Below are positions 5,343 to 60,154 of a stretch of DNA of 64,000 bases, one piece after another. A program made the position numbers and the translations under genes. A model generated the notes under the pieces. The model was given only the letters and a program-made list of their open reading frames with translations, did no database searches and was not told where the DNA came from. Source of the stretch: a virus. Where the stretch lies: the IMG/VR virus record IMGVR_UViG_3300045988_119557, positions 13,946-77,945 of that record, one strand, 5' to 3'. Position 1 is the stretch's first letter, and each line of letters opens with the position of its first letter.

Positions 5343-5385
5343 ATCGGGATTTAGATGCGTGGTGGCTCTATTTCCCGATTTTTTT
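5343..5385 (+). terminator. intrinsic terminator-like hairpin 13 nt before the ATG at 5398
   Basis: ATCGGGA (5343-5349) pairs with TCCCGAT (5373-5379), extended by 4 more bp after a 2-nt mismatch. T7 run at 5379-5385. Confidence 0.6.
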
Positions 5386-5397
5386 ATAAAAAGCAAT

Positions 5398-6120
5398 ATG
5401 AAAGAATTAGTATTTAAAGGAGAATCAAATCAAGTTTTAACGAACAGTCTGCTGGTGGCAGAAAAGTTTGGGAAAGAACACAAAAGAGTAATGCAGGATA
5501 TAAGAGAATTAAAATGCAGTAATCAATTTAAACAGCACAATTTCGTGCTTTCCTCTTATAAGAGTGAACAGAATCGAGAATTGCCTATGTATGTGATGAA
5601 TAAAGACGGATTTACTCTTTTAGTTATGGGATATACTGGTGAAATAGCTATGAAATTTAAGGAGGAATACATTAAGGCTTTCAATGAAATGGAGGAGATT
5701 ATAAAAAATGGAAGCTATTGTGTGCCTAAATCATTCCGTGAAGCTCTTTTACTTGCAGCCGAACAACAGGCTCAGATTGAACAACAGCAAATGCGTATTG
5801 AAGAGATGAAACCTAAAGAAGAGTTTTTTGATCAAGTAACAGATAGTAAGGACGCATGTGATATGGCAACAGTGGCTAAAGTACTAAACATGGGAGTTGG
5901 TAGAAACAAACTATTTGAAATATTGAGAGATAAGAAAGTCCTCCAAGAGAGAAACGCACCATACCAGTCTTACATAGATAGAGGATGGTTTAGAGTCATA
6001 GAAAGCAAATACACCAAGCCCAATGGAGACATGTGTGTAAACTACAAAACCATAGTTTATCAAAAAGGCATAGATGGTATCAGAAAGCTATTATCAGAAC
6101 TAAAGAATGCCGGGGAGTAA
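5398..6120 (+). CDS. Rha-family regulatory protein with C-terminal KilAC antirepressor domain
   Basis: SNQVLTNSLLVAEKFGKEHKRVMQDIREL (Rha N-domain). C-terminus FFDQVTDSKDACDMATVAKVL..GRNKLFEILRDKKVL..YIDRGWFRV (KilAC). The start is placed downstream of the promoter/terminator unit. Confidence 0.8.
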   Translation: MKELVFKGESNQVLTNSLLVAEKFGKEHKRVMQDIRELKCSNQFKQHNFVLSSYKSEQNRELPMYVMNKDGFTLLVMGYTGEIAMKFKEEYIKAFNEMEEIIKNGSYCVPKSFREALLLAAEQQAQIEQQQMRIEEMKPKEEFFDQVTDSKDACDMATVAKVLNMGVGRNKLFEILRDKKVLQERNAPYQSYIDRGWFRVIESKYTKPNGDMCVNYKTIVYQKGIDGIRKLLSELKNAGE

Positions 6121-10459: not shown

Positions 10460-11209
10460 ATGAAAAATAGAATTAAAATTTTCGAGAACGCAGAGTTCGG
10501 GAAGGTTAGAGTTAATACAGTGAACAATGAACCAATGTTCTGCCTAAGTGATGTATGTAGGGTGTTAGGATTAACGCAACCATCAAAAGTAAAAGAAAGA
10601 TTAAATGAAAAGGGTGTGAATACTATTCCTACCCTTACCTCAGGAGGCACACAAGAACTTTTGTATATTAACGAAAGTAATCTTTATAAAACAATCTTTC
10701 AGAGTCGAAAGGAATGCGCAGAACGTTTTTCCGATTGGGTAACTTCGGAAGTCCTTCCGTCCATTAGAAAGAATGGAGGATATATCATGGAGAAACAAGA
10801 TGAAACGCCCGAAGAGCTTATGGCGCGTGCGTTAATGATTGCACAAGAAACCTTAAAGCGCAAGGAGCAAAGGCTGCTCGAAGCTGAGACCAAAATCAAA
10901 GAGAATGCTCCAAAGGTTGAATACTTCAATGGGCTTGTCGAGAGAGGGAATAATCTTAATTTTCGTGATACAGCGAAGCTACTTGGGGTTAAAGAAAAAA
11001 CTTTCATTTATATTTTTATTGATAAAGGGTATGTCTATCGTGATGCAAAAGGAAAACTAAAACCGATAGCCAAATATGTAGGCAAATACTTTGAGTTGAA
11101 GGAATGGGTCACCAATGATAAATCTGGAACGCAAACTCTTATTACGGTGACAGGAAGAGAAAAGTTCGCCAGCATACTTAAGGAATACATTTCAGAGAGT
11201 TTTAATTGA
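10460..11209 (+). CDS. Bro-N / KilAC-type phage antirepressor
   Basis: IFENAEFGKVRV..EPMFCLSDVCRVLGL..NLYKTIFQSRKECAERFSDWVTSEVLPSIRKNGGY (Bro-N), plus a C-terminal KilAC-like half. Confidence 0.8.
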   Translation: MKNRIKIFENAEFGKVRVNTVNNEPMFCLSDVCRVLGLTQPSKVKERLNEKGVNTIPTLTSGGTQELLYINESNLYKTIFQSRKECAERFSDWVTSEVLPSIRKNGGYIMEKQDETPEELMARALMIAQETLKRKEQRLLEAETKIKENAPKVEYFNGLVERGNNLNFRDTAKLLGVKEKTFIYIFIDKGYVYRDAKGKLKPIAKYVGKYFELKEWVTNDKSGTQTLITVTGREKFASILKEYISESFN

Positions 11210-23093: not shown

Positions 23094-25775
23094 ATGTATA
23101 TGGAAACAACAGACAAAGATAAAGAATCAAAGACCAAAATAATTAAGCCACAACCAGGCTTTCAAGAAAAGTTTGTGTGCTCGAATGTGGATGTAGTGTT
23201 CGGAGGCGGTACGTTAAACCCGCAACCCAAGGACTGTCTTGTCTCTACTCCTAATGGATTTGTAAAAATAGGAAGTCTAAAAGCAGGCGATGTTATTACA
23301 AATCCTCTTGGAGGGAATCAGACTGTTAATTTCGTGTTAGACAAAGGAGTACAAGAGTGTGTTGAATTTACTTTGCAGGACGGAAGAAAGGTAAGAAGTG
23401 CCCTATCCCATCATTGGATGGTAAAAGAAAGGCATGGTTATATTTGGGATATATCCGCCAAAGATATAATTGACTATATAGAAACAAGCAAACGGAGAGA
23501 TAAAAGACATGTAAATAGGCTAAGGATTCCAATGTCCGAGCCAGTTGAATTTAGCGATATATATAAAAAGCAAAGGAAAATACATCCTTATTTATTAGGA
23601 GTGTTAATTGGAGATGGCTGCTTATCAGATAAAATATATAGAGCCGATATTGGGACTAATGATATTGAAGTTATCGAAAGGGTTCGGTCTTTGGGGTATA
23701 ATGTAGTTAAAGATAGTATCAATCCAAAAAGTTTGCATTATTGTGTAAGAGATAAACATGTTGTATCAGACTTGAAAGAATTAGGGCTTTGGGGACATTT
23801 AGCTGGGAGTAAATTTATTCCAGATTGCTATAAATATGCGCCCATCGAAGATAGAATGGAACTTTTAAGAGGGTTGTTTGATACAGACGGATGTTGTTCT
23901 ATTAGCAAAATTAGGAAAAATGGGAAAGTTCAATACAATACTATCAGCAAGAGACTGGCAAAGGATGTGCAAGAAGTCATTTGGTCTATTGGAGGCAAAT
24001 GTAGGGTATTCTCAACAGCTCCTACTAAAAGAATGTTTTATGACAGAGAAATAAACTGTGCAGAATACTATACATTGCGAATCTGGACAAAGGACGATAA
24101 AGAACTATTTCACTTAGAAAGAAAAAAAAGAAATACCACTTCGGAAGATAACAAGAAAGTAAAAACTTTCTTAAGTATAATGGATTATAAAATCCTCCCT
24201 CCGGCAGAAGTATGTTGTATAAATGTTTCAGGGGAAGAACATTTGTATTTAACTGATAATTATGTTATTACAAGAAATTGCGGTAAAACATTTAGTGCGA
24301 TTTTGTCAGTTGCAGAGCCAAGTTTAGACCCTTCTTTCCGCGCATGTTTTACTCGTAGGACATTTGGTGAGTTGAACATGGGTGGCGGACTTGTAGATGA
24401 TTTTGAATCAGCATTCGGTAATGGAGCGCAAGTTAGGAAAACAAATCCGCCAAGAGTAACATTTCCATCGGGATCTTTTGTTGAAATGCGTCAAATCAAT
24501 GATGAGAATATCAAAAAGATAACGGAGCAATGGAAAGGTGCGCAGTTTGACCTTATATATATGGACGAGTTGACCTCTTATCAATTCTCTACTTTTAAAT
24601 ACCTTCTGACCAGAAATAGAGGTAAAGGTTCTTGGACAGGTAAGTTTAGAGGCACTACGAATCCGAAGAAAGATTCTTGGATTAGAAAATTCCTTGATTG
24701 GTATATTAGTCCAGAAGGTCAGATTATTCCTGAACGAGATGGTGTAGTTAGATATTTCTATATTGCTGGAGATACCATAGACGATGTTATTTGGGGAGAT
24801 ACCAAAAAAGAAGTATACCAGAAATGTAAGTTAGACATTGACAAGAAGATAAAAGCTGTAGGAGGAACGATTTCTTATGAAAACTTTATCAAGTCTTTTA
24901 CATTTTATTTGGGTAGAATGTCCGAGAATAAAGCCATTCTCGATGGCAACATGGACTACGTAGGTTCTGTTGCTGCATCAGGAGGTAGAATGGCTCAACA
25001 ATTATTGGAAGGTAACTGGAATGTTGACTTGGAGGATGAATCAGACGCTCCTATTCCGTCCCATGTTGCAAGAAGTACATTTATGAATGACCCTCAAAGG
25101 AATGGAGACAGATGGATTACTTGCGACTTGGCAGACTTTGGAACGGATAACATGGTTGCTTTGGCTTGGGATGGATTTCATATAATGGATGCTCTAATCT
25201 TGGGTAAAACGACGCCGCGAATGAATGCGGATAAGCTTTCTTTATTTGCAGCAAAGTGGGATGTAGCAGATTGCCATATAATATATGATGGTATCAACGG
25301 ACGTTACCTTTCTGATTATATTCCAGATGCAATTGCATTTCTTTCTTTTAAAGCGCCAAGAGGGATGTATGGACGTTCCGCAAGAAGCTTAAAAGACGAA
25401 TGTTATTTACGACTCAAATACATTATTAATAATAGATATCTGTCTTGGGAAGAAGAAGTCTTACAAAGAAGATATACGCATAATAAGATGAAAGATGAAA
25501 TCACTATTGGCGTTGAATTTGTAGAAGAATGTACTGTCGTTCGGTTTAAGACAGAAGCAAGCGGGAAACATAGACTGGCCACGAAGAAAGAGATGAATCA
25601 AATGTTGGGAAAGGGACGCTCTATGGACTTATTAGACCCATGTGCTATGCGAATGTATCCTGTTTTGGAATATCAATATGGCGATGAACTTATCGAGACA
25701 GCAGTCGATTTTGAAGAAAGAGAGAAGCAATATATTCCCAAAGACAATATATATAGAGATGATTTTTGGGCTTAA
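23094..25775 (+). CDS. terL: terminase large subunit, interrupted by an intein
   Basis: The exteins carry CGKT (P-loop), DLIYMDELT (Walker B) and RGTTNP, plus a C-terminal nuclease half. They total 545 aa once the 348-aa insert is removed. Confidence 0.9.
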   Translation: MYMETTDKDKESKTKIIKPQPGFQEKFVCSNVDVVFGGGTLNPQPKDCLVSTPNGFVKIGSLKAGDVITNPLGGNQTVNFVLDKGVQECVEFTLQDGRKVRSALSHHWMVKERHGYIWDISAKDIIDYIETSKRRDKRHVNRLRIPMSEPVEFSDIYKKQRKIHPYLLGVLIGDGCLSDKIYRADIGTNDIEVIERVRSLGYNVVKDSINPKSLHYCVRDKHVVSDLKELGLWGHLAGSKFIPDCYKYAPIEDRMELLRGLFDTDGCCSISKIRKNGKVQYNTISKRLAKDVQEVIWSIGGKCRVFSTAPTKRMFYDREINCAEYYTLRIWTKDDKELFHLERKKRNTTSEDNKKVKTFLSIMDYKILPPAEVCCINVSGEEHLYLTDNYVITRNCGKTFSAILSVAEPSLDPSFRACFTRRTFGELNMGGGLVDDFESAFGNGAQVRKTNPPRVTFPSGSFVEMRQINDENIKKITEQWKGAQFDLIYMDELTSYQFSTFKYLLTRNRGKGSWTGKFRGTTNPKKDSWIRKFLDWYISPEGQIIPERDGVVRYFYIAGDTIDDVIWGDTKKEVYQKCKLDIDKKIKAVGGTISYENFIKSFTFYLGRMSENKAILDGNMDYVGSVAASGGRMAQQLLEGNWNVDLEDESDAPIPSHVARSTFMNDPQRNGDRWITCDLADFGTDNMVALAWDGFHIMDALILGKTTPRMNADKLSLFAAKWDVADCHIIYDGINGRYLSDYIPDAIAFLSFKAPRGMYGRSARSLKDECYLRLKYIINNRYLSWEEEVLQRRYTHNKMKDEITIGVEFVEECTVVRFKTEASGKHRLATKKEMNQMLGKGRSMDLLDPCAMRMYPVLEYQYGDELIETAVDFEEREKQYIPKDNIYRDDFWA
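23235..24278 (+). mobile_element. intein with LAGLIDADG homing endonuclease
   Basis: Starts CLVSTPNGFVKIGSLKAGDVI (block A), then LSHHWMV (block B). LAGLIDADG motifs LLGVLIGDGCL and LLRGLFDTDGC. Ends HLYLTDNYVITRN, followed by a +1 Cys. Confidence 0.85.
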
Positions 25776-43223: not shown

Positions 43224-43532
43224 TTAGTTATTTTCTACATATTGGTAACACTTGGTAGTGTTCATTCCAGGTAACTTATAATTCACCTCCCTAATATATC
43301 CATGTTCAACGAGCCTATTAACGGCATTGTATATTTTCTTTGTAGAAAGGAAAGGAATTAATTCTTTTAGTTTTGCTATTGCAATAAATCCGGTATATTT
43401 CTCTCGTTTTACCATGCAGCCTTTAAACGATTCTTGATACATTTTAGTACATAGTATCAATCGCATATAATAGTAGACGGCTGCGGCTTCTAAACCAACT
43501 TTAGAAGCCATTTCTTCATCAATACAAATCAT
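43224..43532 (-). CDS. winged-helix DNA-binding protein
   Basis: ASKVGLEAAAVYYYM..KKIYNAVNRLVEHGYI resembles the N-terminus of the replication organiser at 52655-53647. Confidence 0.5.
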   Translation of the reverse strand: MICIDEEMASKVGLEAAAVYYYMRLILCTKMYQESFKGCMVKREKYTGFIAIAKLKELIPFLSTKKIYNAVNRLVEHGYIREVNYKLPGMNTTKCYQYVENN

Positions 43533-43541
43533 GCAGCCTAT

Positions 43542-43934
43542 CTACTTTTTGAGTTTAAATTCTTCGTATCGTTGCTTGATATTCTTTAGCCTACGAACTT
43601 TTCTAAAATGATTAATACCTAAATGTACCGTAACAATAATGCTAATAGCCCATGTAGCTGATACAATAAGCAAATATACCTCTGCCGTAGGCATAATATT
43701 GAATGTATTGTCAATACAAGTAATAGTATCGGTAAACATAAGATTAAGTGGTATAGCTCTTGCATACTTGCAATGATATTTACCTTCGTCACAAGCAAGC
43801 CTATACAAACAATAATCTAATAAGACAACATAGCCATCAAATGTTATTAATACTCCACTCCATGCAAAACAAAATACAATTAACATATAAATAGCTAATC
43901 CAAAGATAGTTGCTCTAACTATTAACTTTTCCAT
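43542..43934 (-). CDS. integral membrane protein
   Basis: 130 aa with about four hydrophobic helices (ATIFGLAIYMLIVFCFAWSGVLI, etc.). Confidence 0.55.
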   Translation of the reverse strand: MEKLIVRATIFGLAIYMLIVFCFAWSGVLITFDGYVVLLDYCLYRLACDEGKYHCKYARAIPLNLMFTDTITCIDNTFNIMPTAEVYLLIVSATWAISIIVTVHLGINHFRKVRRLKNIKQRYEEFKLKK

Positions 43935-44015
43935 ATCTATATTTAATATAACCTTTACTTATTCTTTTTAGAATTGACTACGAATACAATTTTCTCTGTA
44001 AATAATCCAGGCGCT

Positions 44016-44492
44016 TTAGATCTTAGTTGCGGCTTCACTGGTGACTTTCTCCCATTCTCCGTTACCTTCGTGCTCGCCTTTATCTGTACCTTTTTCTTTG
44101 CCATAGCCTAATTCGATTAATGTCATTATTGAATAAGAAGCCAAGTCCATTAATGTATCCGCGATAGATTCGTCATTAACTTTTTGATTCTTTTTAGTTG
44201 TTAAAGAGATAATGCGATTCATTTTATCGCTCATTCGCGTAATTGAGGATATAATCCCAAGTTTTTTAAATGTTTCGCCAAATGAATCGCCATAATCACT
44301 GTTTTTTCTTTCATAAAGAGATGCAAGAGAATTTGCAATTGATTTGAACTGCGCAACTTTATCTATTCTCTTTGTTCCAAAATATTCTGGGAATTCTATC
44401 ATTCCAAATGGCTTTGTATCGTCAGTCATCCAATAAATAGGTTTTGCGCTACCTACTACATGAACACAATTACTGTTATTCTCCTCTTTCAT
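44016..44492 (-). CDS. DUF1599 / MazG-superfamily-like all-alpha protein
   Basis: KNSDYGDSFGETFKKLGIISSITRMSDKMNRIISL matches the K..DYG....f..lG......R..DK..R pattern as I recall it. Confidence 0.5.
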   Translation of the reverse strand: MKEENNSNCVHVVGSAKPIYWMTDDTKPFGMIEFPEYFGTKRIDKVAQFKSIANSLASLYERKNSDYGDSFGETFKKLGIISSITRMSDKMNRIISLTTKKNQKVNDESIADTLMDLASYSIMTLIELGYGKEKGTDKGEHEGNGEWEKVTSEAATKI

Positions 44493-45084
44493 TTTCTCCT
44501 TCTTTTAAAACTTCTTGTTTAAATCTCTCTGCCGCCAAAATATTCTTTCTAAACTCTTCGTCTTCAATTGGGGTTTCTTCTTGAATAGGAGCGTCTAATT
44601 TGCTTTGGAAGAATTCTATTTGCTTTTTAGTTATATATGTAGCTAAATCAATCCAATATTCGTCATTTGTAAAGCAAATAAGAGGATTTAGTATAATAGA
44701 GAAAGTTCCAGAGAACAGCAAATCATAATTCTCTTTTTCTTGTTCGGTTAAGAGGTCATAATTCCCCTTCAGTTCAATAAGAGACTTCAAATGTCCATAA
44801 AGGGAATGTAGCCACGGTCTTACATACATTCTAAAACCATTTGCGCTTACTATTATCCCAGATTTTGTTTCGTACAGTTTAAAACTCTCAAAATCAAGTT
44901 CTTTTTGGGTTTCAGAACAAGGCACATGTATCAATGTAGGCTCAATACATAATTGTTCCTTTATTGATAAGATGTCATTAATTAATTTCTCACCATAATG
45001 TGCGTTATCGCAAAGCCCTTTCAGCTTTGCGATCTTAACGCGTAGTTCTTTGTTCAATTCTTCTTTAGTTTTAGTTTTCATCAT
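44476..45084 (-). CDS. hypothetical protein
   Basis: 202-aa ORF that overlaps its neighbours within the operon. Confidence 0.5.
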   Translation of the reverse strand: MMKTKTKEELNKELRVKIAKLKGLCDNAHYGEKLINDILSIKEQLCIEPTLIHVPCSETQKELDFESFKLYETKSGIIVSANGFRMYVRPWLHSLYGHLKSLIELKGNYDLLTEQEKENYDLLFSGTFSIILNPLICFTNDEYWIDLATYITKKQIEFFQSKLDAPIQEETPIEDEEFRKNILAAERFKQEVLKEGENERGE

Positions 45085-45652
45085 TTTCAGTTTTAGGTTT
45101 GCGTCCTCTTCTTTTGGGTGATTCGTCTAATGTTTCAGTATCAACTTCGGAGGCAGCAGATTTATCTATTACTTTGCTTTCTGTAGGATTTTCAGGATCT
45201 TCTACGCCTAACATGTAATCAGTAGTAGTTTTTCTTCCGTTGAACCTACTAATTTTCTCTTTAATACAGATATTCAACAAACGTTTTTTTAGCGTATCGT
45301 TGTCAAGTCCGATTAGACTATCTCGTTCTACACGCTCTCTTTGGCTGATAAAGTTGATAATATCCTCTTTGGTTTCAACAGCCGGAGTATCAGAAGCACC
45401 GAGGCTTAAATAGGGATAAATAGCTACTACACTATGTGGAATGCCTCTGTTGGGAGATTCTTTCTTTACATTTATTTCCTCCCATGAAAAGAAATCATGT
45501 TCTGCTATAACATAATCCTCACAACCAGATTTACGTTTCAGTTTTACAATTGCCTGTGCCCATACTTTAGAGCCATCATATTCATCGGGAAGTTCCGATA
45601 TTTTTGCATAAAGCAACATGTCTATCAAAGATTCATCTTCTCTTGTTACCAT
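45071..45652 (-). CDS. hypothetical protein
   Basis: 193-aa ORF with a basic C-terminal tail (PKRRGRKPK). Confidence 0.5.
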   Translation of the reverse strand: MVTREDESLIDMLLYAKISELPDEYDGSKVWAQAIVKLKRKSGCEDYVIAEHDFFSWEEINVKKESPNRGIPHSVVAIYPYLSLGASDTPAVETKEDIINFISQRERVERDSLIGLDNDTLKKRLLNICIKEKISRFNGRKTTTDYMLGVEDPENPTESKVIDKSAASEVDTETLDESPKRRGRKPKTENDEN

Positions 45653-45682
45653 GATTTTTATATTTTAAATTATGAATTCGCC

Positions 45683-45690
45683 ACAAATAT
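45683..45690 (-). promoter_or_regulatory. Bacteroides-type -7 promoter box
   Basis: The minus strand reads TATATTTG, about 30 nt upstream of the ATG at 45652. Confidence 0.4.
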
Positions 45691-45727
45691 AACTTTTTTA
45701 AGTCGTATTTACAACCGAGTAGTATTA

Positions 45728-46486
45728 TTAATTGCGACTCAACAACTTATTAACAAAGAACACTTGTCCAGCACCAGTCACTTTTGGAGTTTTATTTATG
45801 GTAATATGTCCATCACTGTGAGTTATAGCTGTTTCCTTAATCTCAAATAATTTCATCTCCATGCTTTTTTGAGTTGGCATATTAAAATCAGATCCTTTTC
45901 TTTTTATTAGATAACCATTATCTCTTAACCAAGAAAACATCCTATTTTGTCCCATTTCTACTCCATTCTGCTTGATAATTTTAGCCAAATCTCCAATTAG
46001 GATAGAAGTTTTGGAAGTAGTCACCGCTTCACTGAACAGAACTTTAGGTTTATCAACCTCAATCTTAGCCTCAGCCTCAATCCTTTTCTTTTGTTCCTCT
46101 TTCAGATTTTGCAACAGACCAATCATAAAGTCTGGATTAGAGATAGCTTGTTCTAATACATTATCTGTCATATATGCGCCATGCTTGCGAATTGAAGGGA
46201 GGATTTTGGTAGCTACGTTCATTTGGAAAGATTTGGCAGTTTCATTTGATGCTTTCATCGCAAGTAGATAGAATGCCTGTTCAGGGATAAAATCATCTTT
46301 TCCCAAGATGTTGGGAAAGCCAAAATCAGCCAAGTAGCGGTTGATTGTCTCCCATCTTACATACTCCACTCCATTTTTGTTTTGTGTAAACCCTAATCCT
46401 CTTGCAATATCTTCTACATTTAGATATGCTACTTCATTTTTAATGTAACCTCTTACGTTACTTACTGTGATAATTTCTTTTCCCAT
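45728..46486 (-). CDS. Bro-N/Ant-type antirepressor with KilAC domain
   Basis: NVEDIARGLGF..AFYLLAMKASNETAKSFQMNVATKILPSIRKHGAY, plus a C-terminal KilAC-like half (ILIGDLAKIIKQNGVEMGQNRMFSWLRDNGYL). Confidence 0.8.
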   Translation of the reverse strand: MGKEIITVSNVRGYIKNEVAYLNVEDIARGLGFTQNKNGVEYVRWETINRYLADFGFPNILGKDDFIPEQAFYLLAMKASNETAKSFQMNVATKILPSIRKHGAYMTDNVLEQAISNPDFMIGLLQNLKEEQKKRIEAEAKIEVDKPKVLFSEAVTTSKTSILIGDLAKIIKQNGVEMGQNRMFSWLRDNGYLIKRKGSDFNMPTQKSMEMKLFEIKETAITHSDGHITINKTPKVTGAGQVFFVNKLLSRN

Positions 46487-46503
46487 TTATAATCTATATT
46501 AAA

Positions 46504-46869
46504 TTATGCTACAAGTCGAAAGTTTGTATTTTCGATAGACTTATCTGTCATATATGAGCCATTCTTGCGAATCGAAGGTAATACTTCGTTGCATACCCAA
46601 TCTTGAAACTTTTCTGCATTAGGAAGATTTGATTTCATTGTTAATCTATATACTTCCCCTTCTTTCCCGTACTTTATAGGTTGCACACCACTTTGAGTAG
46701 GGGTTTCCAAAACGGTAACCCCCTTACAATGGTCTATAACAGCCTTTGCCGGATTTGAATAACCGAGAGATTTCGCCACATCAGCCAAACAAAATAAAGG
46801 CTCACCGTCAACGACTGATACTCTTACCTTTCCGAACTCTAAATTTTCAAATACCTTAATTTCTGACAT
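46504..46869 (-). CDS. Bro-N domain protein
   Basis: VFENLEFGKVRV..EPLFCLADVAKSLGY..YRLTMKSNLPNAEKFQDWVCNEVLPSIRKNGSY. Confidence 0.8.
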   Translation of the reverse strand: MSEIKVFENLEFGKVRVSVVDGEPLFCLADVAKSLGYSNPAKAVIDHCKGVTVLETPTQSGVQPIKYGKEGEVYRLTMKSNLPNAEKFQDWVCNEVLPSIRKNGSYMTDKSIENTNFRLVA

Positions 46870-46899
46870 AATTTTGATTTTTAATGATTAGTACTATTA

Positions 46900-47100
46900 T
46901 TATTTGCTCAACAAAGAGTTAAGCGTCTCTCTAAACTTTTTGTAGTCTTTCAATTCTTCATCAGACAATACAATAAAGCACATTCCATCAATGTATGTAC
47001 ATTCTAATTTTTCTCTTTTGATTAATCTCCAAATCCATGGTACGGTAACACCTTTCATGTCAGCGTAATTTTTGACCTTAATAAGATTTTCTAACTTCAT
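46900..47100 (-). CDS. small helix-turn-helix (excisionase/MerR-like, HTH_17-type) protein
   Basis: VKNYADMKGVTVPWIWRLIKREKLECTYIDGMCFI. It is a paralogue of the small ORFs at 54902-55066 and 59191-59361. Confidence 0.55.
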   Translation of the reverse strand: MKLENLIKVKNYADMKGVTVPWIWRLIKREKLECTYIDGMCFIVLSDEELKDYKKFRETLNSLLSK

Positions 47101-47129
47101 GTTATTTATTGTTTATTGGTTTAACAGTA

Positions 47130-47137
47130 CAAATATA
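47130..47137 (-). promoter_or_regulatory. Bacteroides-type -7 promoter box
   Basis: The minus strand reads TATATTTG, about 30 nt upstream of the ATG at 47100. Confidence 0.45.
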
Positions 47138-47200
47138 GCGTTAATTACCATATACATCCAAATAAAAAAATAATATTTTCAGAATTTAACATTGTTTTAT

Positions 47201-47231
47201 AAAAAAAGCGGCAAGAACTAAGTCTCACCGC
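47201..47231 (-). terminator. intrinsic terminator after the tnpB + 184-aa gene pair
   Basis: Minus strand: GCGGTGAGA..TTCTTGCCGC forms a 9-bp stem (two G-U pairs), followed by T7 (plus-strand A7 at 47201-47207). Confidence 0.7.
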
Positions 47232-47271
47232 TCAAAACAATTATGAACAAAATTTAAACTAAAGATTTCTG

Positions 47272-47826
47272 TTACCAGATTTTATATCCTGCGCCAATAT
47301 TATATACGGGCTTGTTCCCAAAGACTCCTATACCACCATTTAAATAAAATCCTTTTGGGAATGTAATAGCAACATTTAAAGTTGGTATATAGTTCTGATC
47401 AAAGTAAGAAACTTGTCCATAAAGATACCCTTGTGTTTTTTTAGGAGGATATATGGTTTTCGTTTCCGTATTTGTTATTGTCTTATATTCCGTTTTATTA
47501 AAGACATTTATTTTATCCAATGAAGGATTATACCCCGACACCCAAGCTTCATATCTACCATCTTCTTTATAATATTTCTGTTCTATTGGAAGTATTATTT
47601 TAGAAGAGTCAGAAGTATATATGTAAATAGTATCAATAATCTTTTTTTCTTTAAATATTGGAGATACTAATTCAAGAGTATCGTATTTTACTACCCAAAC
47701 CGTATCTGTCTGAAAAACCGTAGTAGGCTTCTCTAATGGTTTATTAAAATACGGGACAATTGCTATTATCACTAATAATATGATGATAATATATGCAAGA
47801 GCATTACAACGCTTTAAGGCACTCAT
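47272..47826 (-). CDS. membrane-anchored protein with beta-rich C-terminus ending in an aromatic residue
   Basis: N-terminal anchor ALAYIIIILLVIIAIVPYF. C-terminus LNGGIGVFGNKPVYNIGAGYKIW. It starts 8 nt after the tnpB stop. Confidence 0.55.
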   Translation of the reverse strand: MSALKRCNALAYIIIILLVIIAIVPYFNKPLEKPTTVFQTDTVWVVKYDTLELVSPIFKEKKIIDTIYIYTSDSSKIILPIEQKYYKEDGRYEAWVSGYNPSLDKINVFNKTEYKTITNTETKTIYPPKKTQGYLYGQVSYFDQNYIPTLNVAITFPKGFYLNGGIGVFGNKPVYNIGAGYKIW

Positions 47827-47834
47827 ATCAAATT

Positions 47835-49055
47835 TTACACTTGTCTATTTTGACGTTTCACTGAACCACTACTTCTTAGGTAACTTTCGCCACGTTCGTC
47901 CATAGTTGGGTTCTCACCGTCCAAACCCCAGTGTGCCACTGGTTCTGTTAATAAATTCTGTTCTTGCAGTCCGAATCGTTTAATATTCTGTGCTGCATTT
48001 AAGTCTCTGTCATTTACTATTCCACACTTAGGGCAAGTCCATGTACGGTCAGATAGTTTCATCCCCCAGTTTACATATCCACATCCACACATTTTAGATG
48101 AAGGCTGAAATCTACCGATGCGAATCAAAGTCTTTCCATACCATTTGCACTTGTATTCAAGCATAGAAAAGAAAGTAGACCAACCAACAGAACCTATTGA
48201 ACGGGCTAAATGATGATTCTTCATCATACCCTTAACGTTCAAATCCTCTATGATAATCGCTTGGTTTTCGCGAACAAGTTTAGTACTAATCTTGTGAAGA
48301 TAGTCCGTCCGTTGGTTGGTTACTTTCTCATATTGTCTTGCTAACCGCTTTCTAATTCTTTCACGTCTATTCCCTCCTTTTTTAGCCTTACTGAAACGTC
48401 TTTGCAGTTGTTTTAGTTTGACTGTTGATTTCTCCAAGTATTTTGGATTCTTATACACATCACCATTGGAACATACTGCAAAGTCTTTAATTCCTACATC
48501 AATCCCAATAGTCCCGTCATACGTTATGTTTTCCTTAGCTGGAAAATCTTTATCATCATCCACCAATACGCTAATATAGTATTTATCAGTAGGAGTTTTT
48601 GATACTACAACTGAAGTTGTTCTCCCTTCAAATGCACGGTTAGCTGCAAACTTCACCCATCCTATCTTTGGGAGTCTTACTTTGTTGCTGTCTAAGTCAA
48701 CCACTACTGAATTGATAGCTTTATACGACTGTCTATTATCATGCTTTGACTTGAATTTAGGAAATCCTTTCTTTTCCCTAAAGAATCTCGTAAAAGCGGA
48801 ATCAAGATTGCGAATTGACTGTTGCAGGCATTCGTTTGACAGCTCTTTTAGCCACTCCATCCCCTCTTCCTTTTTCAAGCCTGTAAGCATCTTGCACAGA
48901 TCAATAGAATTTATCCGCCTTTTTTCTGTCTGATATGCTTCAATGCGTTTGTTCAAAGCCCAATTATATACATACCTCGCGCACCCAAAAGACTTCGCAA
49001 AGAAAATCTTCTGTTCTTTTGTAGGATGTAATCTGTATTTGTAGGCTCGTAACAT
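47835..49055 (-). CDS. tnpB: TnpB, IS200/IS605-family RNA-guided nuclease with an intact RuvC triad
   Basis: MLRAYKYRLHPT.., IGIDVGIKDF (RuvC-I), IIIEDLNVKGM (RuvC-II), CGCGYV..CPKCG zinc ribbon, NDRDLNAAQNI (RuvC-III). Confidence 0.9.
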   Translation of the reverse strand: MLRAYKYRLHPTKEQKIFFAKSFGCARYVYNWALNKRIEAYQTEKRRINSIDLCKMLTGLKKEEGMEWLKELSNECLQQSIRNLDSAFTRFFREKKGFPKFKSKHDNRQSYKAINSVVVDLDSNKVRLPKIGWVKFAANRAFEGRTTSVVVSKTPTDKYYISVLVDDDKDFPAKENITYDGTIGIDVGIKDFAVCSNGDVYKNPKYLEKSTVKLKQLQRRFSKAKKGGNRRERIRKRLARQYEKVTNQRTDYLHKISTKLVRENQAIIIEDLNVKGMMKNHHLARSIGSVGWSTFFSMLEYKCKWYGKTLIRIGRFQPSSKMCGCGYVNWGMKLSDRTWTCPKCGIVNDRDLNAAQNIKRFGLQEQNLLTEPVAHWGLDGENPTMDERGESYLRSSGSVKRQNRQV

Positions 49056-49078
49056 AGCTTATTTCTATTGATTCAGTG

Positions 49079-49086
49079 CAAATATA
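49079..49086 (-). promoter_or_regulatory. Bacteroides-type -7 promoter box
   Basis: The minus strand reads TATATTTG, 23 nt upstream of the tnpB ATG. Confidence 0.45.
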
Positions 49087-49137
49087 GTAAACGGTAAACT
49101 AAAATGCAACTATATTAGTTTATTTAACTGTTTACTT
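49087..49137. repeat. long imperfect palindrome upstream of tnpB (candidate left-end hairpin)
   Basis: GTAAACGGTAAACTAAAAT...ATTTAACTGTTTAC. Pairing the arms by hand gives about 16 of 19 positions (including G-U pairs). Confidence 0.5.
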
Positions 49138-49165
49138 GGTGTTGGGACGTATATAAGTGCCCTTG

Positions 49166-49612
49166 TTAATTTTTAATAGTCGTAAGACCGTTAATATTAG
49201 TAAATTTAAATGTTGCTAAAATATATGGGGAATTTCCATGCAGATAATCCGAAGATGGTTCTACTTTATCGGAGAGAATAATCTCTGCTTGTCTTTTTCT
49301 GATAGTATCCCAATACAATATTTTTTTTCCAAGAACATAATTATAAAAGTTGTCGAAAGTATCACGACGATTGACTCCTATAAATGCAAACACGAATTCA
49401 ATATCTGTAGCATCTACCGTTGGAGTATCTGGTATGTAGTAATTACTTCCATTGCTTTCAGGAAATACTTCTGAATAAATTCTTGGCTTACCCTTAGTGG
49501 ATAGCCCTTTGCATGACACATACTTCATACCAGGGAAATCTACCTCTAAGTTTTTAACGGGTTGCGTTGTTGGCTTCCCTATCTCTTGCATATAAAAAAC
49601 CGGATTACTCAT
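49166..49612 (-). CDS. hypothetical protein
   Basis: 148-aa ORF. No motif confidently recognised. Confidence 0.5.
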   Translation of the reverse strand: MSNPVFYMQEIGKPTTQPVKNLEVDFPGMKYVSCKGLSTKGKPRIYSEVFPESNGSNYYIPDTPTVDATDIEFVFAFIGVNRRDTFDNFYNYVLGKKILYWDTIRKRQAEIILSDKVEPSSDYLHGNSPYILATFKFTNINGLTTIKN

Positions 49613-50126
49613 TATCTTTCGGCATTATTCGTTCAACTATAACGCGACTATTAATAACATCTCCTGTAATTAAAGGCGAGCCGCCATATACATAGATAAA
49701 ACATCTGCTATTTGCTCCAATGCTTATATCTATCCTACTATCACCAGCAATAAAGATTTTGCAAAAATGATTGGGTTTTATTTTGAGATCTGTATTACTA
49801 TCTAATACACACAAAAGAGTAGTAGAAACCTCAAAGTTGTCGTCGTTGTATTCACACAACATAGCCCCAGTGTATCCATGACCTTTATCATTTTTATATT
49901 CGCAAATATATTTTCCATTTACATAGGCTTTAAATTTCTTTGCAAAATATTCAGGAGACACTCCCCATCCCTCGGCAACAGAAGTAGCCATAAATTCTGC
50001 TCCATTAGCGTCACAAGCAATTTCAAATAATTCTCTATTGCTTTTTTCAGAAGTCCATTTGTCAGTATAACCTTGACAGAGACCTCTTTCTATAGCGTTT
50101 TTTTTAAATTGTTCTAAATCTATCAT
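49605..50126 (-). CDS. hypothetical protein
   Basis: 173-aa ORF that overlaps the downstream gene by 8 nt. Confidence 0.5.
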   Translation of the reverse strand: MIDLEQFKKNAIERGLCQGYTDKWTSEKSNRELFEIACDANGAEFMATSVAEGWGVSPEYFAKKFKAYVNGKYICEYKNDKGHGYTGAMLCEYNDDNFEVSTTLLCVLDSNTDLKIKPNHFCKIFIAGDSRIDISIGANSRCFIYVYGGSPLITGDVINSRVIVERIMPKDNE

Positions 50127-50180
50127 TGTTAGTCTGTTTTATACCGCAAATATAGCAATTATTACTTTAAATCCAATATT

Positions 50181-50538
50181 TTATTCTCCTTTTCTAACTT
50201 TATCACAACAATCAGCGATATACCCACAAAGATAGCTAAAACATTCTTGATTTTCAAGGTCAACCTTTGCTCCAATATAAGAGAATATATCCATTGCAGC
50301 ATGTGTAGCTTCATGCGTTATATGCTTAATCGTCATATCTTTTTTTGAAGCAAATCTAATTAGTACACCTCCTTTATCTGTTTTTTTTGTTACAAGTGGT
50401 TTCCGTTATAGCACAACAACTGTTATCAAAATCAACAACATCGTCTAAAATATACTCAAATTTGCTTTTAGAAACTGCTATCCACAACTTTATTGGATAA
50501 ATAGCTAAATCAAATTCATGTAGTGTTTCTTTCTTCAT
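50181..50538 (-). pseudogene. small HExxH protein gene broken by a +1 frame shift at an A8 run
   Basis: Hand translation: MKKETLHEFDLAIYPIKLWIAVS..CAITETTCNKKNR then a stop (50374). The +1 frame continues TDKGGVLIRFASKKDMTIKHITHEATHAAMDIF..YLCGYIADCCDKVRKGE to 50181. The junction is the run at 50381-50388. Confidence 0.55.
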
Positions 50539-50550
50539 TTTTTATTTGTT

Positions 50551-52662
50551 TTAAAAAGGACAACTTTCATCTCCACTTGCGAATGGCAGTCCATTATCCT
50601 TATTTTGATTAACATCTCTCGGTTCTTGATTATGCCATGATTCGGGTTGAGGATATGTAAAAGAGTATGGTTTAGGTGCTTCTTCCCATCCATAATGTAT
50701 ATCTTCATTTTCTTCATTTTTGAATCTTCGGCTTGGTATATCATAGTGCATCCCCACCAAATAATCCACTACGCCATACATTCGGTTTTTAGCCACCTCT
50801 ATTACGTTTCCAAATCCAGTATATCTGGCAACCTTATCCTTCCCTAAAAACTCTCCTCCACGTTTAATGAAGTCATTATTAACTCGATGGATTATAAATA
50901 CATTGTCAACAGCATTTGTTAAATCGGCTGTTCCGCTAATTGAATCCTTTCTTAGAAATTCAACTTGTTTACGCGGATGACAGACCAGAATTAAATGGAT
51001 TTGATTCTTTTTAGAGAATTCGCATATTTTCAATATAAGTTCTTTTTGCTTATTGTTTTTATCTCCATCAAATAAATCAATATCAAGAGAAAATAAGTTG
51101 TCAAGAATCAAAAGCTTTACGCCATTATCAACCATCTCTTTCATGTCGTTAAAAAGCTGCGCGAACTTAGAGCCATACTCGTTGTTATACAAGAAGAACT
51201 TCCCATCAAGCCAATTGTCTATTTTTTCAGCAGCAGCAGGCATAACGTCATATTTTCCAGAACCAGGTATTCGTTCAACTAAATTCCTACTACCTGCGGC
51301 AACCATTTGAATCCAAGTTTTTAGAATATCTGGACGTAATTCTCCGCTCCACAATGCAGCCTTATATCCCTGATTTACAACATTAAGAATTAATGTATTT
51401 AGCCATGATGATTTTCCACTGGAATTACTACCAGACAAAATAGATACTTCTCCAAGATTTAACCCAACCATAGCCCTATCCAAGACATGAAAACCTGTTT
51501 TTAGGCTTATTATTTCTGTCAGATTTATCTTTTTAATATCCTTCATGCTAAACCATTTCTTGCCTAACTCTTCCGTTTCCTCCTTGATTTTCATTTCTTT
51601 TTTGGGAGGAATTGGATAGTTATTGTTCCCATATTGGGTATTATTTCTTGGAGTAACATCATAAGCATTAGGCTCGTATTTTAAGCGCAAATCTCTCCAA
51701 GTATATTGGCTACATGAATTATGGAAACAAGTAAAACCTATCCCATCTTTAGATACAAAAATAGCCGAATCAGGATGTTTATGCGAAGAGTCAAATGGGC
51801 ATTCATCTAATATGATCTTTCTTGTCCCATCACCAAGCAATGTATCTTTATATACTTTTATCCCATGCTTACTGATAAAATTATCAATATCAAATCGTTC
51901 CCTATTGCCGTTGTTAAATCTAACTATTGGCTCTATTTTCGGGATATAATCAGCAAGCCTTTTGAATAAAGATATATCATTCTCTTTAATTTCTTGCGGT
52001 ACAACTAATATTTTGCTAATTCGATGTGGTCTATTAGGCGTATTACCTCCCTTTCTCGAATACGTACCATATAGCTTTGTTATTCTCGCTGGATTAAACA
52101 CCTTTACATCAACATCAACATGGTCATCAGTAAACTTGGAAGATAAATACTTCAAAAAATCCCTGATAATAGATGTATTTTCATCAGTATTATCCAAATC
52201 CACCTTATACATCAAATGGTATCCATTCCCAGATTCACAAACAATTGGATAATTAAAACCATTTGCTTTTAAAAATGTTCTTGCTTCGTTTGCTGTCTTG
52301 CGAGAATATTCCTTTTCTTCATCAGTACTTGCTACATCCTTTACGCCACCTTCACGTATTGGATCAAAGTCAATAAGCACCCAACGTCTTTTTTGAATAT
52401 CAGCATCCTTAATCGCAGGTGCTCCTTTCACCATAGTGTTAAACTGAGGCAAGCCATCTAACGCGTTTTTTAGCTCGTTAAAGGTAAAATAGATGTTGTA
52501 CCTATCATCGAACCTTTGGATTGATTCTACGGCTTTATTTGCGTCTCTAAACACACCTGAATAAATGTCATTCTTGTTTAGTGGATTAAAAAGCCGTATT
52601 TCAAATAATTCTCCATCATTTCTGAACAGAGCAAGGGTCTTTTTTATTTCTTCGTTATTCAT
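50551..52662 (-). CDS. primase-helicase (AEP prim-pol-like N-domain, zinc motif, DnaB/RecA-type helicase C-domain)
   Basis: WVLIDFDP and GNGYHLMY (AEP motifs), CPFDSSHKHPDSAIF..CFHNSC, Walker A GSNSSGKSS, Walker B LLILDNLF. Confidence 0.8.
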   Translation of the reverse strand: MNNEEIKKTLALFRNDGELFEIRLFNPLNKNDIYSGVFRDANKAVESIQRFDDRYNIYFTFNELKNALDGLPQFNTMVKGAPAIKDADIQKRRWVLIDFDPIREGGVKDVASTDEEKEYSRKTANEARTFLKANGFNYPIVCESGNGYHLMYKVDLDNTDENTSIIRDFLKYLSSKFTDDHVDVDVKVFNPARITKLYGTYSRKGGNTPNRPHRISKILVVPQEIKENDISLFKRLADYIPKIEPIVRFNNGNRERFDIDNFISKHGIKVYKDTLLGDGTRKIILDECPFDSSHKHPDSAIFVSKDGIGFTCFHNSCSQYTWRDLRLKYEPNAYDVTPRNNTQYGNNNYPIPPKKEMKIKEETEELGKKWFSMKDIKKINLTEIISLKTGFHVLDRAMVGLNLGEVSILSGSNSSGKSSWLNTLILNVVNQGYKAALWSGELRPDILKTWIQMVAAGSRNLVERIPGSGKYDVMPAAAEKIDNWLDGKFFLYNNEYGSKFAQLFNDMKEMVDNGVKLLILDNLFSLDIDLFDGDKNNKQKELILKICEFSKKNQIHLILVCHPRKQVEFLRKDSISGTADLTNAVDNVFIIHRVNNDFIKRGGEFLGKDKVARYTGFGNVIEVAKNRMYGVVDYLVGMHYDIPSRRFKNEENEDIHYGWEEAPKPYSFTYPQPESWHNQEPRDVNQNKDNGLPFASGDESCPF

Positions 52663-55067: not shown

Positions 55068-55787
55068 TTACTTTCTTTTGTTTTTAATGGTTTTACTTAT
55101 AAAATCAACTCCTTTTTGGTAAACAAGCGTCTTAATGTTCATACATGGCTCTCCATTTTTCATGTATTTTTGCTCTATAACTCTAAAATATCCGCGATCA
55201 ACATAGATTTGGAAAGGAACATTATTCGACATTAATATCTTTTCATTTCTTAAAAACTCAAAGAGATTGTTTCGCCCCATTCCTTTAATACCTAAAACTT
55301 TAGCTACATCATTCATGGATATTGCAGTCTTACTGTCAGCAACAGTATCGAAGAACTCAGCCTTGGGCTTCATCTCCTTATTTTCAAGTTGAAGCCTTTC
55401 GTTCTCCTCAACTTTGTCAGCGAGTTGCCTCAACGCTTCTGCATAGCTTGGAAGTTTAGGCTGAACCGAATAACTTCCATTTTTGCGGATTGAAGGCAGA
55501 ACTTCCGAAGTAATCCATTTTCTAAACTTTTTGGCTTCTGGCTTGCGGGAGTCAAGTATTACGTCATACAAACCGTCTTCGTTGACAAAGTTCGCTTGTT
55601 GAATTCCTCCTGCTGTTAAAAGGGGGTACTTTGAAAGTACATCCTCTCCCAAACGTTGGGCTACCTTGCTTGGAGTAAGATCTAATACCAGACAAAGGTC
55701 TGCCAAACAAAACATTGGTTCTCCATTCTCATTCATTGCAATTCTTACTTGTCCAAATTGCTCGTTTTCAAAAATCTTTAATTCCAT
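55068..55787 (-). CDS. Bro-N / KilAC-type antirepressor
   Basis: IFENEQFGQVRI..EPMFCLADLCLVLDL..GLYDVILDSRKPEAKKFRKWITSEVLPSIRKNGSY, plus a KilAC half (FFDTVADSKTAISMNDVAKVLG). Confidence 0.8.
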   Translation of the reverse strand: MELKIFENEQFGQVRIAMNENGEPMFCLADLCLVLDLTPSKVAQRLGEDVLSKYPLLTAGGIQQANFVNEDGLYDVILDSRKPEAKKFRKWITSEVLPSIRKNGSYSVQPKLPSYAEALRQLADKVEENERLQLENKEMKPKAEFFDTVADSKTAISMNDVAKVLGIKGMGRNNLFEFLRNEKILMSNNVPFQIYVDRGYFRVIEQKYMKNGEPCMNIKTLVYQKGVDFISKTIKNKRK

Positions 55788-59363: not shown

Positions 59364-60065
59364 TTACTTTGTTTTAAATAAGTTAATAATAAAATCTCTT
59401 CCTCTACCAGTCCAACGTCTATCATATTGAATTGTTCCGTTGTCAAGCTGTATTTGTTTTACCGAAGTATATCCTTTTTCAGAGTACTCGGAATACATCA
59501 ACCATGTGCCGTTCTGCTTATACTGAATACGTTTTTCTTCAAGCAGCTTATTTAAAGCTATGGCAGACTTCATCCCAAGTTCTTTGGCAATCTCACTCGA
59601 TGTATATGTCTTGCCATTATGAACGAGAAGTTTCACGTGCTCTTTAGCCTCTTTCGCTTCAAGCAAAGCTTGCTGCTTCTCCTCCTCGCTTTTAACTAAA
59701 GCCTTCAATGCTTCGAGATAAGTCTGAGGAAGGGCGGGAACGTTCCGTCTTTCCTTTGCTTCGAGTTCTTCCCATCTATCTATAATTTTAGACCGCAAAA
59801 CAACATTATACCCACTTGCAAGCAATAAACAAGATTTCTTATCAAGTTCATACATTGGTCTCTTTTCACCTTTCGCATCTGTGTATTCAACCAGTACAAA
59901 AATGTACCCGTTGTTTTCTCCAAGTTGATCTATCAGATTTCTAATATCACGCATAACAATCTTATGCTCTTTACCTGTAAGATCTGCAATCTCTTTTGAG
60001 GTCATACACTCTTTTGCGTTTATAGTTGCGCCAACTTTCTCTAAATTAAATTCCATTCCTTTCAT
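59364..60065 (-). CDS. Rha-family regulatory protein with KilAC-like C-domain
   Basis: MTSKEIADLTGKEHKIVMRDIRNL..YTDAKGEKRPMYEL. The start is trimmed to MKGMEF, downstream of the promoter box at 60082-60089. Confidence 0.8.
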   Translation of the reverse strand: MKGMEFNLEKVGATINAKECMTSKEIADLTGKEHKIVMRDIRNLIDQLGENNGYIFVLVEYTDAKGEKRPMYELDKKSCLLLASGYNVVLRSKIIDRWEELEAKERRNVPALPQTYLEALKALVKSEEEKQQALLEAKEAKEHVKLLVHNGKTYTSSEIAKELGMKSAIALNKLLEEKRIQYKQNGTWLMYSEYSEKGYTSVKQIQLDNGTIQYDRRWTGRGRDFIINLFKTK

Positions 60066-60081
60066 CGTTTTGATTATGATG

Positions 60082-60089
60082 CAAAGATA
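60082..60089 (-). promoter_or_regulatory. Bacteroides-type -7 promoter box
   Basis: The minus strand reads TATCTTTG, 16 nt upstream of the ATG at 60065. Confidence 0.45.
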
Positions 60090-60154
60090 ATACAATGTTT
60101 GTAATTCGCAATACACAATTTGGTATTTAACTACAATTTAACACATATACACAC

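Follow-up and report, generated by a model that had tools for sequence, protein, structure and literature searches.

A tnpB gene on a probable non-autonomous transposon with IS1595-type ends in Bacteroidales phages

How does an apparently intact TnpB nuclease come to lie in a phage genome without a transposase, so close to a membrane-protein gene that the two seem to leave no space for a transposon end? The question is raised by a 64,000-nucleotide stretch of the IMG/VR virus record IMGVR_UViG_3300045988_119557 (positions 13,946 to 77,945; hereafter the window), whose minus strand encodes a TnpB of 406 amino acids (aa) followed after 8 nt by a 184-aa membrane-anchored protein of the Pfam family DUF6808. 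The phage is an uncultured relative of Bacteroides siphoviruses; it has no near kin among cultured phages, and its portal protein is 36% identical to that of phage C3_41T2LP. An initial annotation, made from the letters of the window, likened the upstream region to the left-end hairpin of an IS200/IS605 element, found no room for a canonical right end, and considered the 184-aa gene a possible passenger and the nuclease possibly domesticated. Comparison with related phages points to another answer: positions 49161 to 47818 of the minus strand are probably a 1344-bp non-autonomous transposon, whose cargo is an ISDra2-like TnpB with its guide RNA and whose ends derive from an IS1595-family DDE transposon circulating in the same Bacteroidales phages.

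Element boundaries and the IS1595-type partner

A scan of IMG/VR returned 195 relatives of the TnpB protein, about 30 of them at 67-97% identity on many different phage contigs. BLAST homology to these approximately 30 copies, which stand in unrelated flanks, starts at 49124-49178 and ends at 47813-47825, and motif mapping places the first element base at 49161 (GGCACTTATATAC...) and the last at 47818 (...GATATGAGTGCC), 17 nt after the tnpB stop codon. The right end that had seemed to lack room is thus marked by a sharp stop of homology at 47818, and alignment with related phages defines a bounded insertion with the 184-aa gene outside it; of the features that such an alignment was expected to define, both ends are located, and the transposon-adjacent motif (TAM) of the nuclease is obtained only as a candidate AAA. 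The features of the element and of its insertion site, all on the minus strand, are as follows.

47818..49161 (-): whole mobile element, 1344 bp, with left end, promoter, tnpB, guide-RNA scaffold and right end (about 30 copies)
49170..49172 (-): AAA immediately 5' of the target duplication, candidate TAM suggested by insertion-site asymmetry
49162..49169 (-): left copy of the 8-bp target duplication, TTAACAAG, overlapping the stop codon of a 148-aa gene
49149..49161 (-): GGCACTTATATAC, the inverted repeat of the left terminus, which every copy keeps
49086..49136 (-): imperfect palindrome inside the left end, with 18-nt arms that are 83% complementary
49079..49086 (-): Bacteroidetes-type -7 box, TATATTTG, likely the tnpB promoter, conserved in diverged copies
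47835..49055 (-): tnpB coding sequence, 406 aa, catalytically intact by motif alignment
47818..47955 (-): predicted guide-RNA (omega RNA) scaffold, about 138 nt, comprising the last ~118 nt of the coding sequence, the stop codon and 17 nt beyond
47928..47942 (-): scaffold stem-loop 1, CCAGTGGCACACTGG, with inner two pairs GC/GU/UA/AU and AU/CG/GC across 32 copies
47880..47893 (-): apical GNRA-type hairpin, GTGGC GAAA GTTAC, three pairs of which have compensatory changes
47818..47843 (-): segment with terminal hairpin (47829-47843) and right inverted repeat, including the tnpB stop codon (47835-47837) and a new ATG (47824-47826)
47818..47830 (-): right inverted repeat, TGATATGAGTGCC, whose reverse complement aligns with left ends (GGCACTnATAT.C-N6-ACAC)
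47798..47817 (-): predicted guide, TTAAAGCGTTGTAATGCTCT, the first 20 nt past the right end and codons 4-10 of the DUF6808 open reading frame (ORF)

The left terminus extends to about 25-29 nt and includes an ACAC box, and both termini carry GGCACTTATAT.C-N6-ACAC in inverted orientation. Among 33 non-redundant insertions, the flanking 8-bp sequences match at all eight positions in ten cases and at seven of eight in four, against a shuffled-partner expectation of about 1; duplications occur at 11 distinct sites and were checked against empty sites. For two mini-elements (described below) inserted 3 bp apart, in contigs L204 and L219, one and the same empty sequence is recovered only when an 8-bp copy is taken out; L004 set against L005 and L031 gives the same result, and comparison of the filled site in L031 with the empty site in the window adds further support. 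IS200/IS605 elements have neither inverted repeats nor duplications (PMC13565253); because the termini here are inverted repeats bordered by 8-bp duplications, the element does not belong to that family. The palindrome from which such an affiliation had been drawn is genuine, and its outer arms change jointly in copy L006 (GTAAAC/GTTTAC to ATAAAT/ATTTAT), within an end that is of IS1595 type.

The partner transposase was found by listing the ORFs next to a lone terminus in contig L237, where a 314-aa ORF matches Pfam DDE_Tnp_IS1595 (5e-43) together with the IS1595 zinc ribbon; a search of viral contigs for pairs of identical left-end motifs had yielded none. Relatives of this transposase are encoded at 19 viral loci, and the transposase elements for which both ends could be located are 2.65-3.14 kb long and include extra genes for membrane proteins or lipoproteins. 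Three of them, in related phages, are flanked by 8-bp duplications:

L298, 2323-5437: IS1595-type transposon, duplication AAAAGTTT
L299, 870-4008: IS1595-type transposon, duplication TTATTTAT
L309, 1734-4384: IS1595-type transposon, duplication TTATATTT

The left end of a TnpB element (L035) is the same as that of a transposase element (L303) over 29 nt, the left end of a mini-element equals that of another transposase element (L294) over 25 nt, and two terminal subtypes co-vary between cargo elements and transposase elements. Both kinds of element occur together on contigs 106663 (L008 and L294) and 114541 (L017 and L298), and in a relative of the window phage the transposase lies beside the primase gene (L307). 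The IS1595 family makes A/T-rich 8-bp repeats (PMC12561309). The window element family thus has IS1595-like termini and an A/T-rich 8-bp duplication and lacks an internal transposase; as neither the element nor the window encodes one, the window copy is classed as a non-autonomous derivative rather than a full member of the family. The shared ends, shared duplication length and co-occurrence on contigs argue for mobilization in trans, in which the IS1595 transposase would move the element and its mini-elements during co-infection.

Other routes of movement were considered and rejected. TnpB cuts 15-21 bp from its TAM, which counts against staggered cuts by TnpB as the source of the 8-bp duplication, and new insertion sites do not match the guide. 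The serine recombinase of C3_41T2LP was discarded as mobilizer: the window has no such gene and the element makes duplications, which IS607-type recombination does not. Rfam searches at gathering and permissive thresholds detected no group I intron, the mark of an IStron, at the left end.

Several further observations concern these ends. A second, unrelated TnpB family, 26% identical over 137 aa, carries this type of end as well (GACAATTATATAGGACTTGACACTT ... ACTTGTAAATAAGTGCC) at L003 10876-12119 (C3_41T2LP record ~49875-51118) and also in L012, L022 and L028, so that two different TnpB cargos seem to use the same transposon ends. At one orthologous site a second related terminus stands in tandem before the left end (GGCAATTATATAG GGCACTTATATAC; L034 5316-5341, L014 884-909, L028 2895-2920, L003 25464-25489), and this site holds a full tnpB element in some phages and a mini-element alone in others. 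The IS1595-type phage transposons have a conserved lysine-rich ORF of ~60 aa just downstream of the transposase; their other cargo is variable.

The nuclease, its predicted guide RNA and the mini-elements

The 406-aa ORF matches the Pfam families HTH_OrfB_IS605 (PF12323), OrfB_IS605 (PF01385) and Cas12f1-like_TNB (PF07282), all well above cut-off, and has the HTH/WED-REC, split RuvC and zinc-ribbon (TNB) domains of a TnpB. A phmmer search against the PDB aligns residues 3-376 with ISDra2 TnpB (8exa/8h1j; E 1e-73), placing GIDVG, IIIEDL and NDRDLNAAQNI opposite its three catalytic motifs; the initial reading of an intact D/E/D triad is thereby borne out. The form DRDxN at RuvC-III, which defines 'typical' TnpBs, puts the window protein among them (PMC10278001). 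It is predicted to be an RNA-guided, TAM-dependent DNA nuclease, and a ratio of nonsynonymous to synonymous substitution (dN/dS) of ~0.06-0.08 over aa 1-366 relative to its homologues indicates purifying selection. The initial annotation had also noted that TnpA and serine recombinases are missing from the window, and a Pfam scan of 53 non-structural window ORFs found no Y1 TnpA, serine recombinase or DDE transposase; the lone Y1_Tnp match in this set is sub-threshold and lies inside a Rha/ANT antirepressor protein, and a tblastn search of the window with the IS1595 transposase gave no match. The consensus of Bacteroides promoters is well established, and the -7 box ahead of tnpB, of the form TAnnTTTG and already noted initially, is likely part of its own promoter. 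Since bare TAnnTTTG occurs in the window at a chance frequency (99 found, 87 expected), this assignment is based on conservation in diverged copies: the box and a TTTG ~20 nt upstream are kept in left ends that are only 76% identical.

A megablast search of positions 45000-52000 against GenBank phages produced a sole match, the 138-nt stretch 47953..47816, which is 80% identical to four intergenic, ORF-free copies in Bacteroides phage C3_41T2LP. The consensus fold of 32 non-redundant copies contains 23 pairs, six of them with compensatory changes, and relatives at 67-72% protein identity contribute further compensatory pairs; in L029 the apical hairpin reads GTCAA GAAA TTGAC. Synonymous divergence is approximately halved over the last 40 tnpB codons (proportion of synonymous differences, pS, 0.36 versus 0.71), which implies an overlapping RNA constraint. 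The scaffold of TnpB systems extends in the 3' direction up to the right end, with the guide immediately beyond (PMC10278001); here, likewise, the 3' end of tnpB carries a predicted guide-RNA scaffold that would terminate at the right end. The scaffold position at the end of the coding sequence and its mildly higher GC content (42.8% versus 35.1% for the window, in the top 7% of windows) had both been recognized initially, and of the three hairpins then proposed, those at 47928-47942 and 47880-47893 recur with compensatory changes, whereas the one at 47908-47928 is absent from the consensus fold. A search with covariance models had been suggested as a check, and no Rfam family matched the scaffold either at gathering thresholds over the whole window or at permissive thresholds over 47600-49300.

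The predicted guide has no other match within the window. In L004, L005 and L031 the same sequence follows GATGAAA, and it matches the 5' end of the DUF6808 gene of L031 over 23 nt and that of L005 over 18 nt, in each case beside AAA. As had been foreseen among three possibilities, the 184-aa ORF shares sequence with the scaffold end, the right end and the predicted guide: its codons 1-3 come from the final 9 nt of the right end, and its codon 4 is the first of the guide.

A search of IMG/VR with the invariant core of the scaffold recovered 101 stretches, with 6-7 copies in single contigs of 45-75 kb. Most are mini-elements of 212-220 bp, in which a ~70-nt left end is joined to the scaffold, and the virulent-type phages that carry them usually have one tnpB copy or none, as is the case for C3_41T2LP. 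Some mini-elements possess an alternative right end (...GTGTCCCACAAGGACATGAACGCC; L203 783-924, L207 2663-2804, L215 1982-2123 and others), in which the terminal hairpin differs and an ATG stands equally far from the end.

A search of 185,579 species-representative bacterial and archaeal genomes found no close copy, the best TnpB relative being 53% identical, and hence no chromosomal source; a plasmid collection searched with the mini-element gave no match. Close TnpB homologues come from metagenome assemblies, the longest contigs being 45-130 kb, and the neighbourhoods examined are phage-like. The TnpB lineage appears to be confined to gut phage genomes. GenBank includes 355 phage records with more distant homologues (below 60% identity), so a phage-borne TnpB is not unusual in itself.

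Some of the metagenome contigs with tnpB (proteins P0002 and P0084) are 1345 and 1348 nt long, essentially the length of the element, and may be collapsed repeats or excised circular forms. In phages with the 72%-identity TnpB subfamily, tnpB is preceded at a distance of ~1.2 kb by a Tad2-like/Sequestin anti-defence gene (L288/L289, 2046-2853). The C3_41T2LP genome, otherwise tightly packed, includes 1.3 kb with no annotated gene and no ORF longer than 66 aa (L003 4357-5658; record ~43356-44657). One contig with mini-elements of the IS1595-ended family also has a canonical IS605-type element (L076 2440-4200), with hairpin ends, a divergent Y1 TnpA and a TnpB 40% identical to that of the window.

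History of the tnpB-DUF6808 junction

Two features noted initially stand downstream of the element:

47272..47826 (-): 184-aa membrane-anchored DUF6808 gene (Pfam DUF6808), a flanking phage gene outside the element
47206..47233 (-): intrinsic-terminator-like hairpin after the DUF6808 gene

The DUF6808 ORF starts within the right end (ATG at 47826-47824). In L005 and L031 the window site is empty, and a 148-aa gene is followed by one CTAACAAG, a 117-aa gene that the window lacks and the DUF6808 gene, whose native start in the relatives is ATGAAATTAAAGCG (MKLKRCNA). In L004 the insertion site is that of the window, CTAACAAT...CTAACAAG flank the element, and the 117-aa gene is retained, with the DUF6808 gene 367 nt outside the element. 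By this comparison, the window corresponds to an L004-like genome minus 363 bp between the right end and TTAAAGCG. All other copies of the main right-end type read GATATAAG, without an ATG, whereas the window reads GATATGAG, a difference indicating that an A>G change created the start codon of the DUF6808 gene, which is truncated here; the N-terminus is MSALKRCNA in the window. Thus, the element would have inserted 4 nt after the 148-aa gene; the 363-bp stretch with the 117-aa gene would then have been lost, whether through an end-anchored deletion or through recombination involving a second copy, and with this loss the right end would have come to adjoin codon 3 of the DUF6808 gene; and the A>G change in the right end would have restored a start codon. 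The tight junction of tnpB with the DUF6808 gene is a secondary deletion repaired by a point mutation and not a designed operon, and the 3' end of tnpB and the start of its neighbour should not be annotated as one.

Three different element sites are present among phages that are 97% identical: besides the window site, the element follows a 66-aa gene in L005 and lies between a 173-aa gene and the 148-aa gene in L031, from which it is concluded that the element has moved within the phage lineage. The right flank of the window copy (TTAAAGCG) follows GATGAAA in relatives, and the right flank of the L005 copy follows CCATAAA in the window. These insertions with mismatched flanks obey the AAA rule on both sides, which fits recombination between copies or end-anchored deletion into a second target. 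Beside the right end of the L005 copy (L005 4238 onward compared with window 45794-46881), ~1.1 kb including a Bro-N gene is missing and the element runs into the 3' end of a 252-aa antirepressor gene, a second independent right-flank deletion in the lineage.

Candidate TAM and competing explanations

Just 5' of the duplicated 8 bp, at positions -10/-9, AA occurs in 20 of 22 distinct left flanks; the base before it is A in 15 of the 22, and the first duplicated base is always T or C. The mirror motif is found on the right side at one of 11 sites (Fisher p 7e-6 versus left), and elements with only a transposase have the AA motif at 6 of 13 sites (p 0.006 versus elements bearing the guide RNA), the background being ~10%. 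At an empty site, the position of AAA relative to the guide-matching sequence is precisely the one required of a TAM. These data suggest that the AAA beside the duplicated 8 bp is a candidate TAM, and TnpB-dependent homing accounts more readily than the transposase for a one-sided motif tied to the orientation of tnpB. In the pathway that we envisage, tnpB would be transcribed from the Bacteroidetes-type promoter in the left end; TnpB would cut the guide RNA from its own mRNA, with ~16-20 nt past the right end as guide; the complex would cut the uninterrupted allele in co-infecting sibling phages beside the AAA TAM; and recombinational repair would then copy the element into the cut allele. 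Alternatively, AAA could be a target preference of the IS1595 transposase, TnpB having no role in the persistence of copies. IS1595-family elements do prefer A/T-rich targets (PMC12561309) and the transposase-only elements exceed background; yet a transposase acting on two similar ends is not expected to leave a one-sided motif, nor one that is stronger in guide-RNA-bearing than in transposase-only elements, and we regard this alternative as rather unlikely.

The remaining explanations differ over what the element is. An ordinary IS200/IS605 (IS1341-group) element with tnpB alone, which a Y1 TnpA supplied in trans would move in single-stranded form, would agree with the closeness of the protein to ISDra2 TnpB, which is from a Y1-type element, with the Y1 TnpA directly upstream of 43-47%-identity relatives in Firmicutes and their phages, with the canonical IS605 and its TnpA in the L076 contig, and with the palindrome in the left end. 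It is very improbable in view of the inverted-repeat termini and the duplications at 11 sites; moreover, no conserved tetra- or pentanucleotide abuts the left end, from which the conserved AAA is 8 bp away, the ends of the L076 element are unrelated, and the 53 window ORFs include no TnpA. That the DUF6808 gene is a passenger in a larger element with its true right end beyond 47272 has next to no likelihood: genes for membrane proteins or lipoproteins are indeed among the cargo of IS1595-type elements in these phages, and tnpB shares a terminator with the DUF6808 gene, but homology among the copies stops at 47818, the gene occupies its locus in L005 and L031 without an adjoining element and is separated from the element by the 117-aa gene in L004, and no inverted-repeat motif occurs downstream of 47272. 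Domestication of an immobile TnpB with a fixed guide, which would serve to attack sibling phages or to regulate the co-transcribed DUF6808 gene, seems unlikely, if less so. In its favour, the window has no transposase, a start codon is now provided by a right end that has drifted, purifying selection on TnpB is strong, and the guide matches the 5' end of the DUF6808 gene of relatives with AAA before the match. However, the intact catalytic triad argues against a TldR-like repressor, purifying selection is equally expected of a homing element, any mobile copy would in the same way have its flank as guide, the co-transcription stems from a recent deletion absent in L004, and the element occupies three different sites in 97%-identical phages and many sites elsewhere.

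The interpretation as a non-autonomous, IS1595-ended transposon also has points against it. About half of the insertions lack matching duplications; we infer recombination between copies as the cause of these mismatched flanks, and two cases, in which the right flank follows AAA in the ancestral sequence, support this. No element was found with a transposase and tnpB inside one pair of ends, the absence of a transposase from the window weakens the case for mobility of the window copy itself, and the right end of this copy, with three substitutions in the last 19 nt, may be decaying. The minimum free energy of the window scaffold alone is unexceptional (z = -0.65), so that the structural claim rests on covariation. 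As for the TAM, AAA is drawn from 22 sites in A/T-rich DNA, and some A bias is evident in transposase-only elements as well.

The transposon was compared with several known systems. ISDra2 TnpB (IS200/IS605; 8exa, 8h1j) is alike in domain order, intact D/E/D triad, typical DRDxN, a scaffold that overlaps the gene 3' end and stops at the right end, and a guide taken from the flank. Its element is moved by a Y1 TnpA and has hairpin ends without inverted repeats or duplications and a TTGAT TAM abutting the left end, whereas the window element has inverted repeats, an 8-bp duplication, a candidate AAA TAM 8 bp off the left end and no TnpA. DDE-associated TnpB branches (e.g. IS630-linked DDE-6) likewise have inverted terminal repeats and a right end near the 3' end of tnpB, and mobilization in trans has been proposed for solo tnpB copies that share their ends (Altae-Tran et al. 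2023, PMC10691335); the window lineage differs in that transposase and tnpB were never seen in one element, in having been seen on phage-like contigs only and in its ISDra2-like TnpB. IS630 is named in the main text of that paper but IS1595 is not, and a full-text literature search for TnpB together with IS1595 found no paper describing a link. IS1595 insertion sequences share short inverted repeats starting with GG and A/T-rich 8-bp duplications, and the partner elements have passenger genes; unlike them, the window element lacks a transposase, its cargo is an RNA-guided nuclease, and its right repeat doubles as the 3' hairpin of the guide RNA and the end of a protein-coding gene. Like miniature inverted-repeat and palindrome-associated transposable elements (MITEs and PATEs), which derive from insertion sequences and encode no protein, the mini-elements are short, keep both termini, make duplications and reach many copies per genome, but they retain a complete guide-RNA scaffold, in virulent-type phages with 6-7 copies per 45-75 kb. 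Free-standing homing endonucleases of phages, known for intronless homing and marker exclusion (PMC13565253), cut the empty allele of a co-infecting relative and are copied by repair, as is predicted here, whereas a guide RNA read from the flank would automatically give each new site its own specificity. Finally, TldR and other nuclease-dead TnpB proteins are unlike the window protein, whose triad is intact and whose element lies at different sites in near-identical phages.

Cas12 descends from TnpB, whose partnering with transposons is an active question. If the reading from sequence is correct, a TnpB of ISDra2 type with an intact catalytic site has given up its Y1 transposase partner in favour of IS1595-type ends, and the 26-nt segment 47818-47843 is at once gene end, guide-RNA hairpin and predicted transposase-binding repeat. 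More tentatively, guide-RNA-bearing IS1595 derivatives in these virulent phages might owe their spread and persistence mainly to acting as RNA-guided gene drives during co-infection, with the one-sided AAA beside almost all surviving insertions as a footprint of homing and the scaffold-only mini-elements as a dispersed multi-guide set; we consider this possible rather than probable. One tnpB gene could then cut rival phages at many loci, and phage-phage competition would include a transposon-built, array-free analogue of a CRISPR guide repertoire. The AAA asymmetry offers a testable TAM prediction, and these phages a natural system for RNA-guided homing between co-infecting genomes.

Two other features of the window are recorded here. 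The 893-aa terminase large subunit (23094-25775, plus strand) contains a LAGLIDADG_3 domain at residues 255-300, ahead of Terminase_6N at 390-642, which suggests an intein or an inserted homing endonuclease. The window also has at least six antirepressor-like genes of the Bro-N/ANT/Rha type, an unusually large paralogous set for one phage, among them those at 5359-6120, 10460-11209, 45728-46869, 55068-55787 and 59364-60116.

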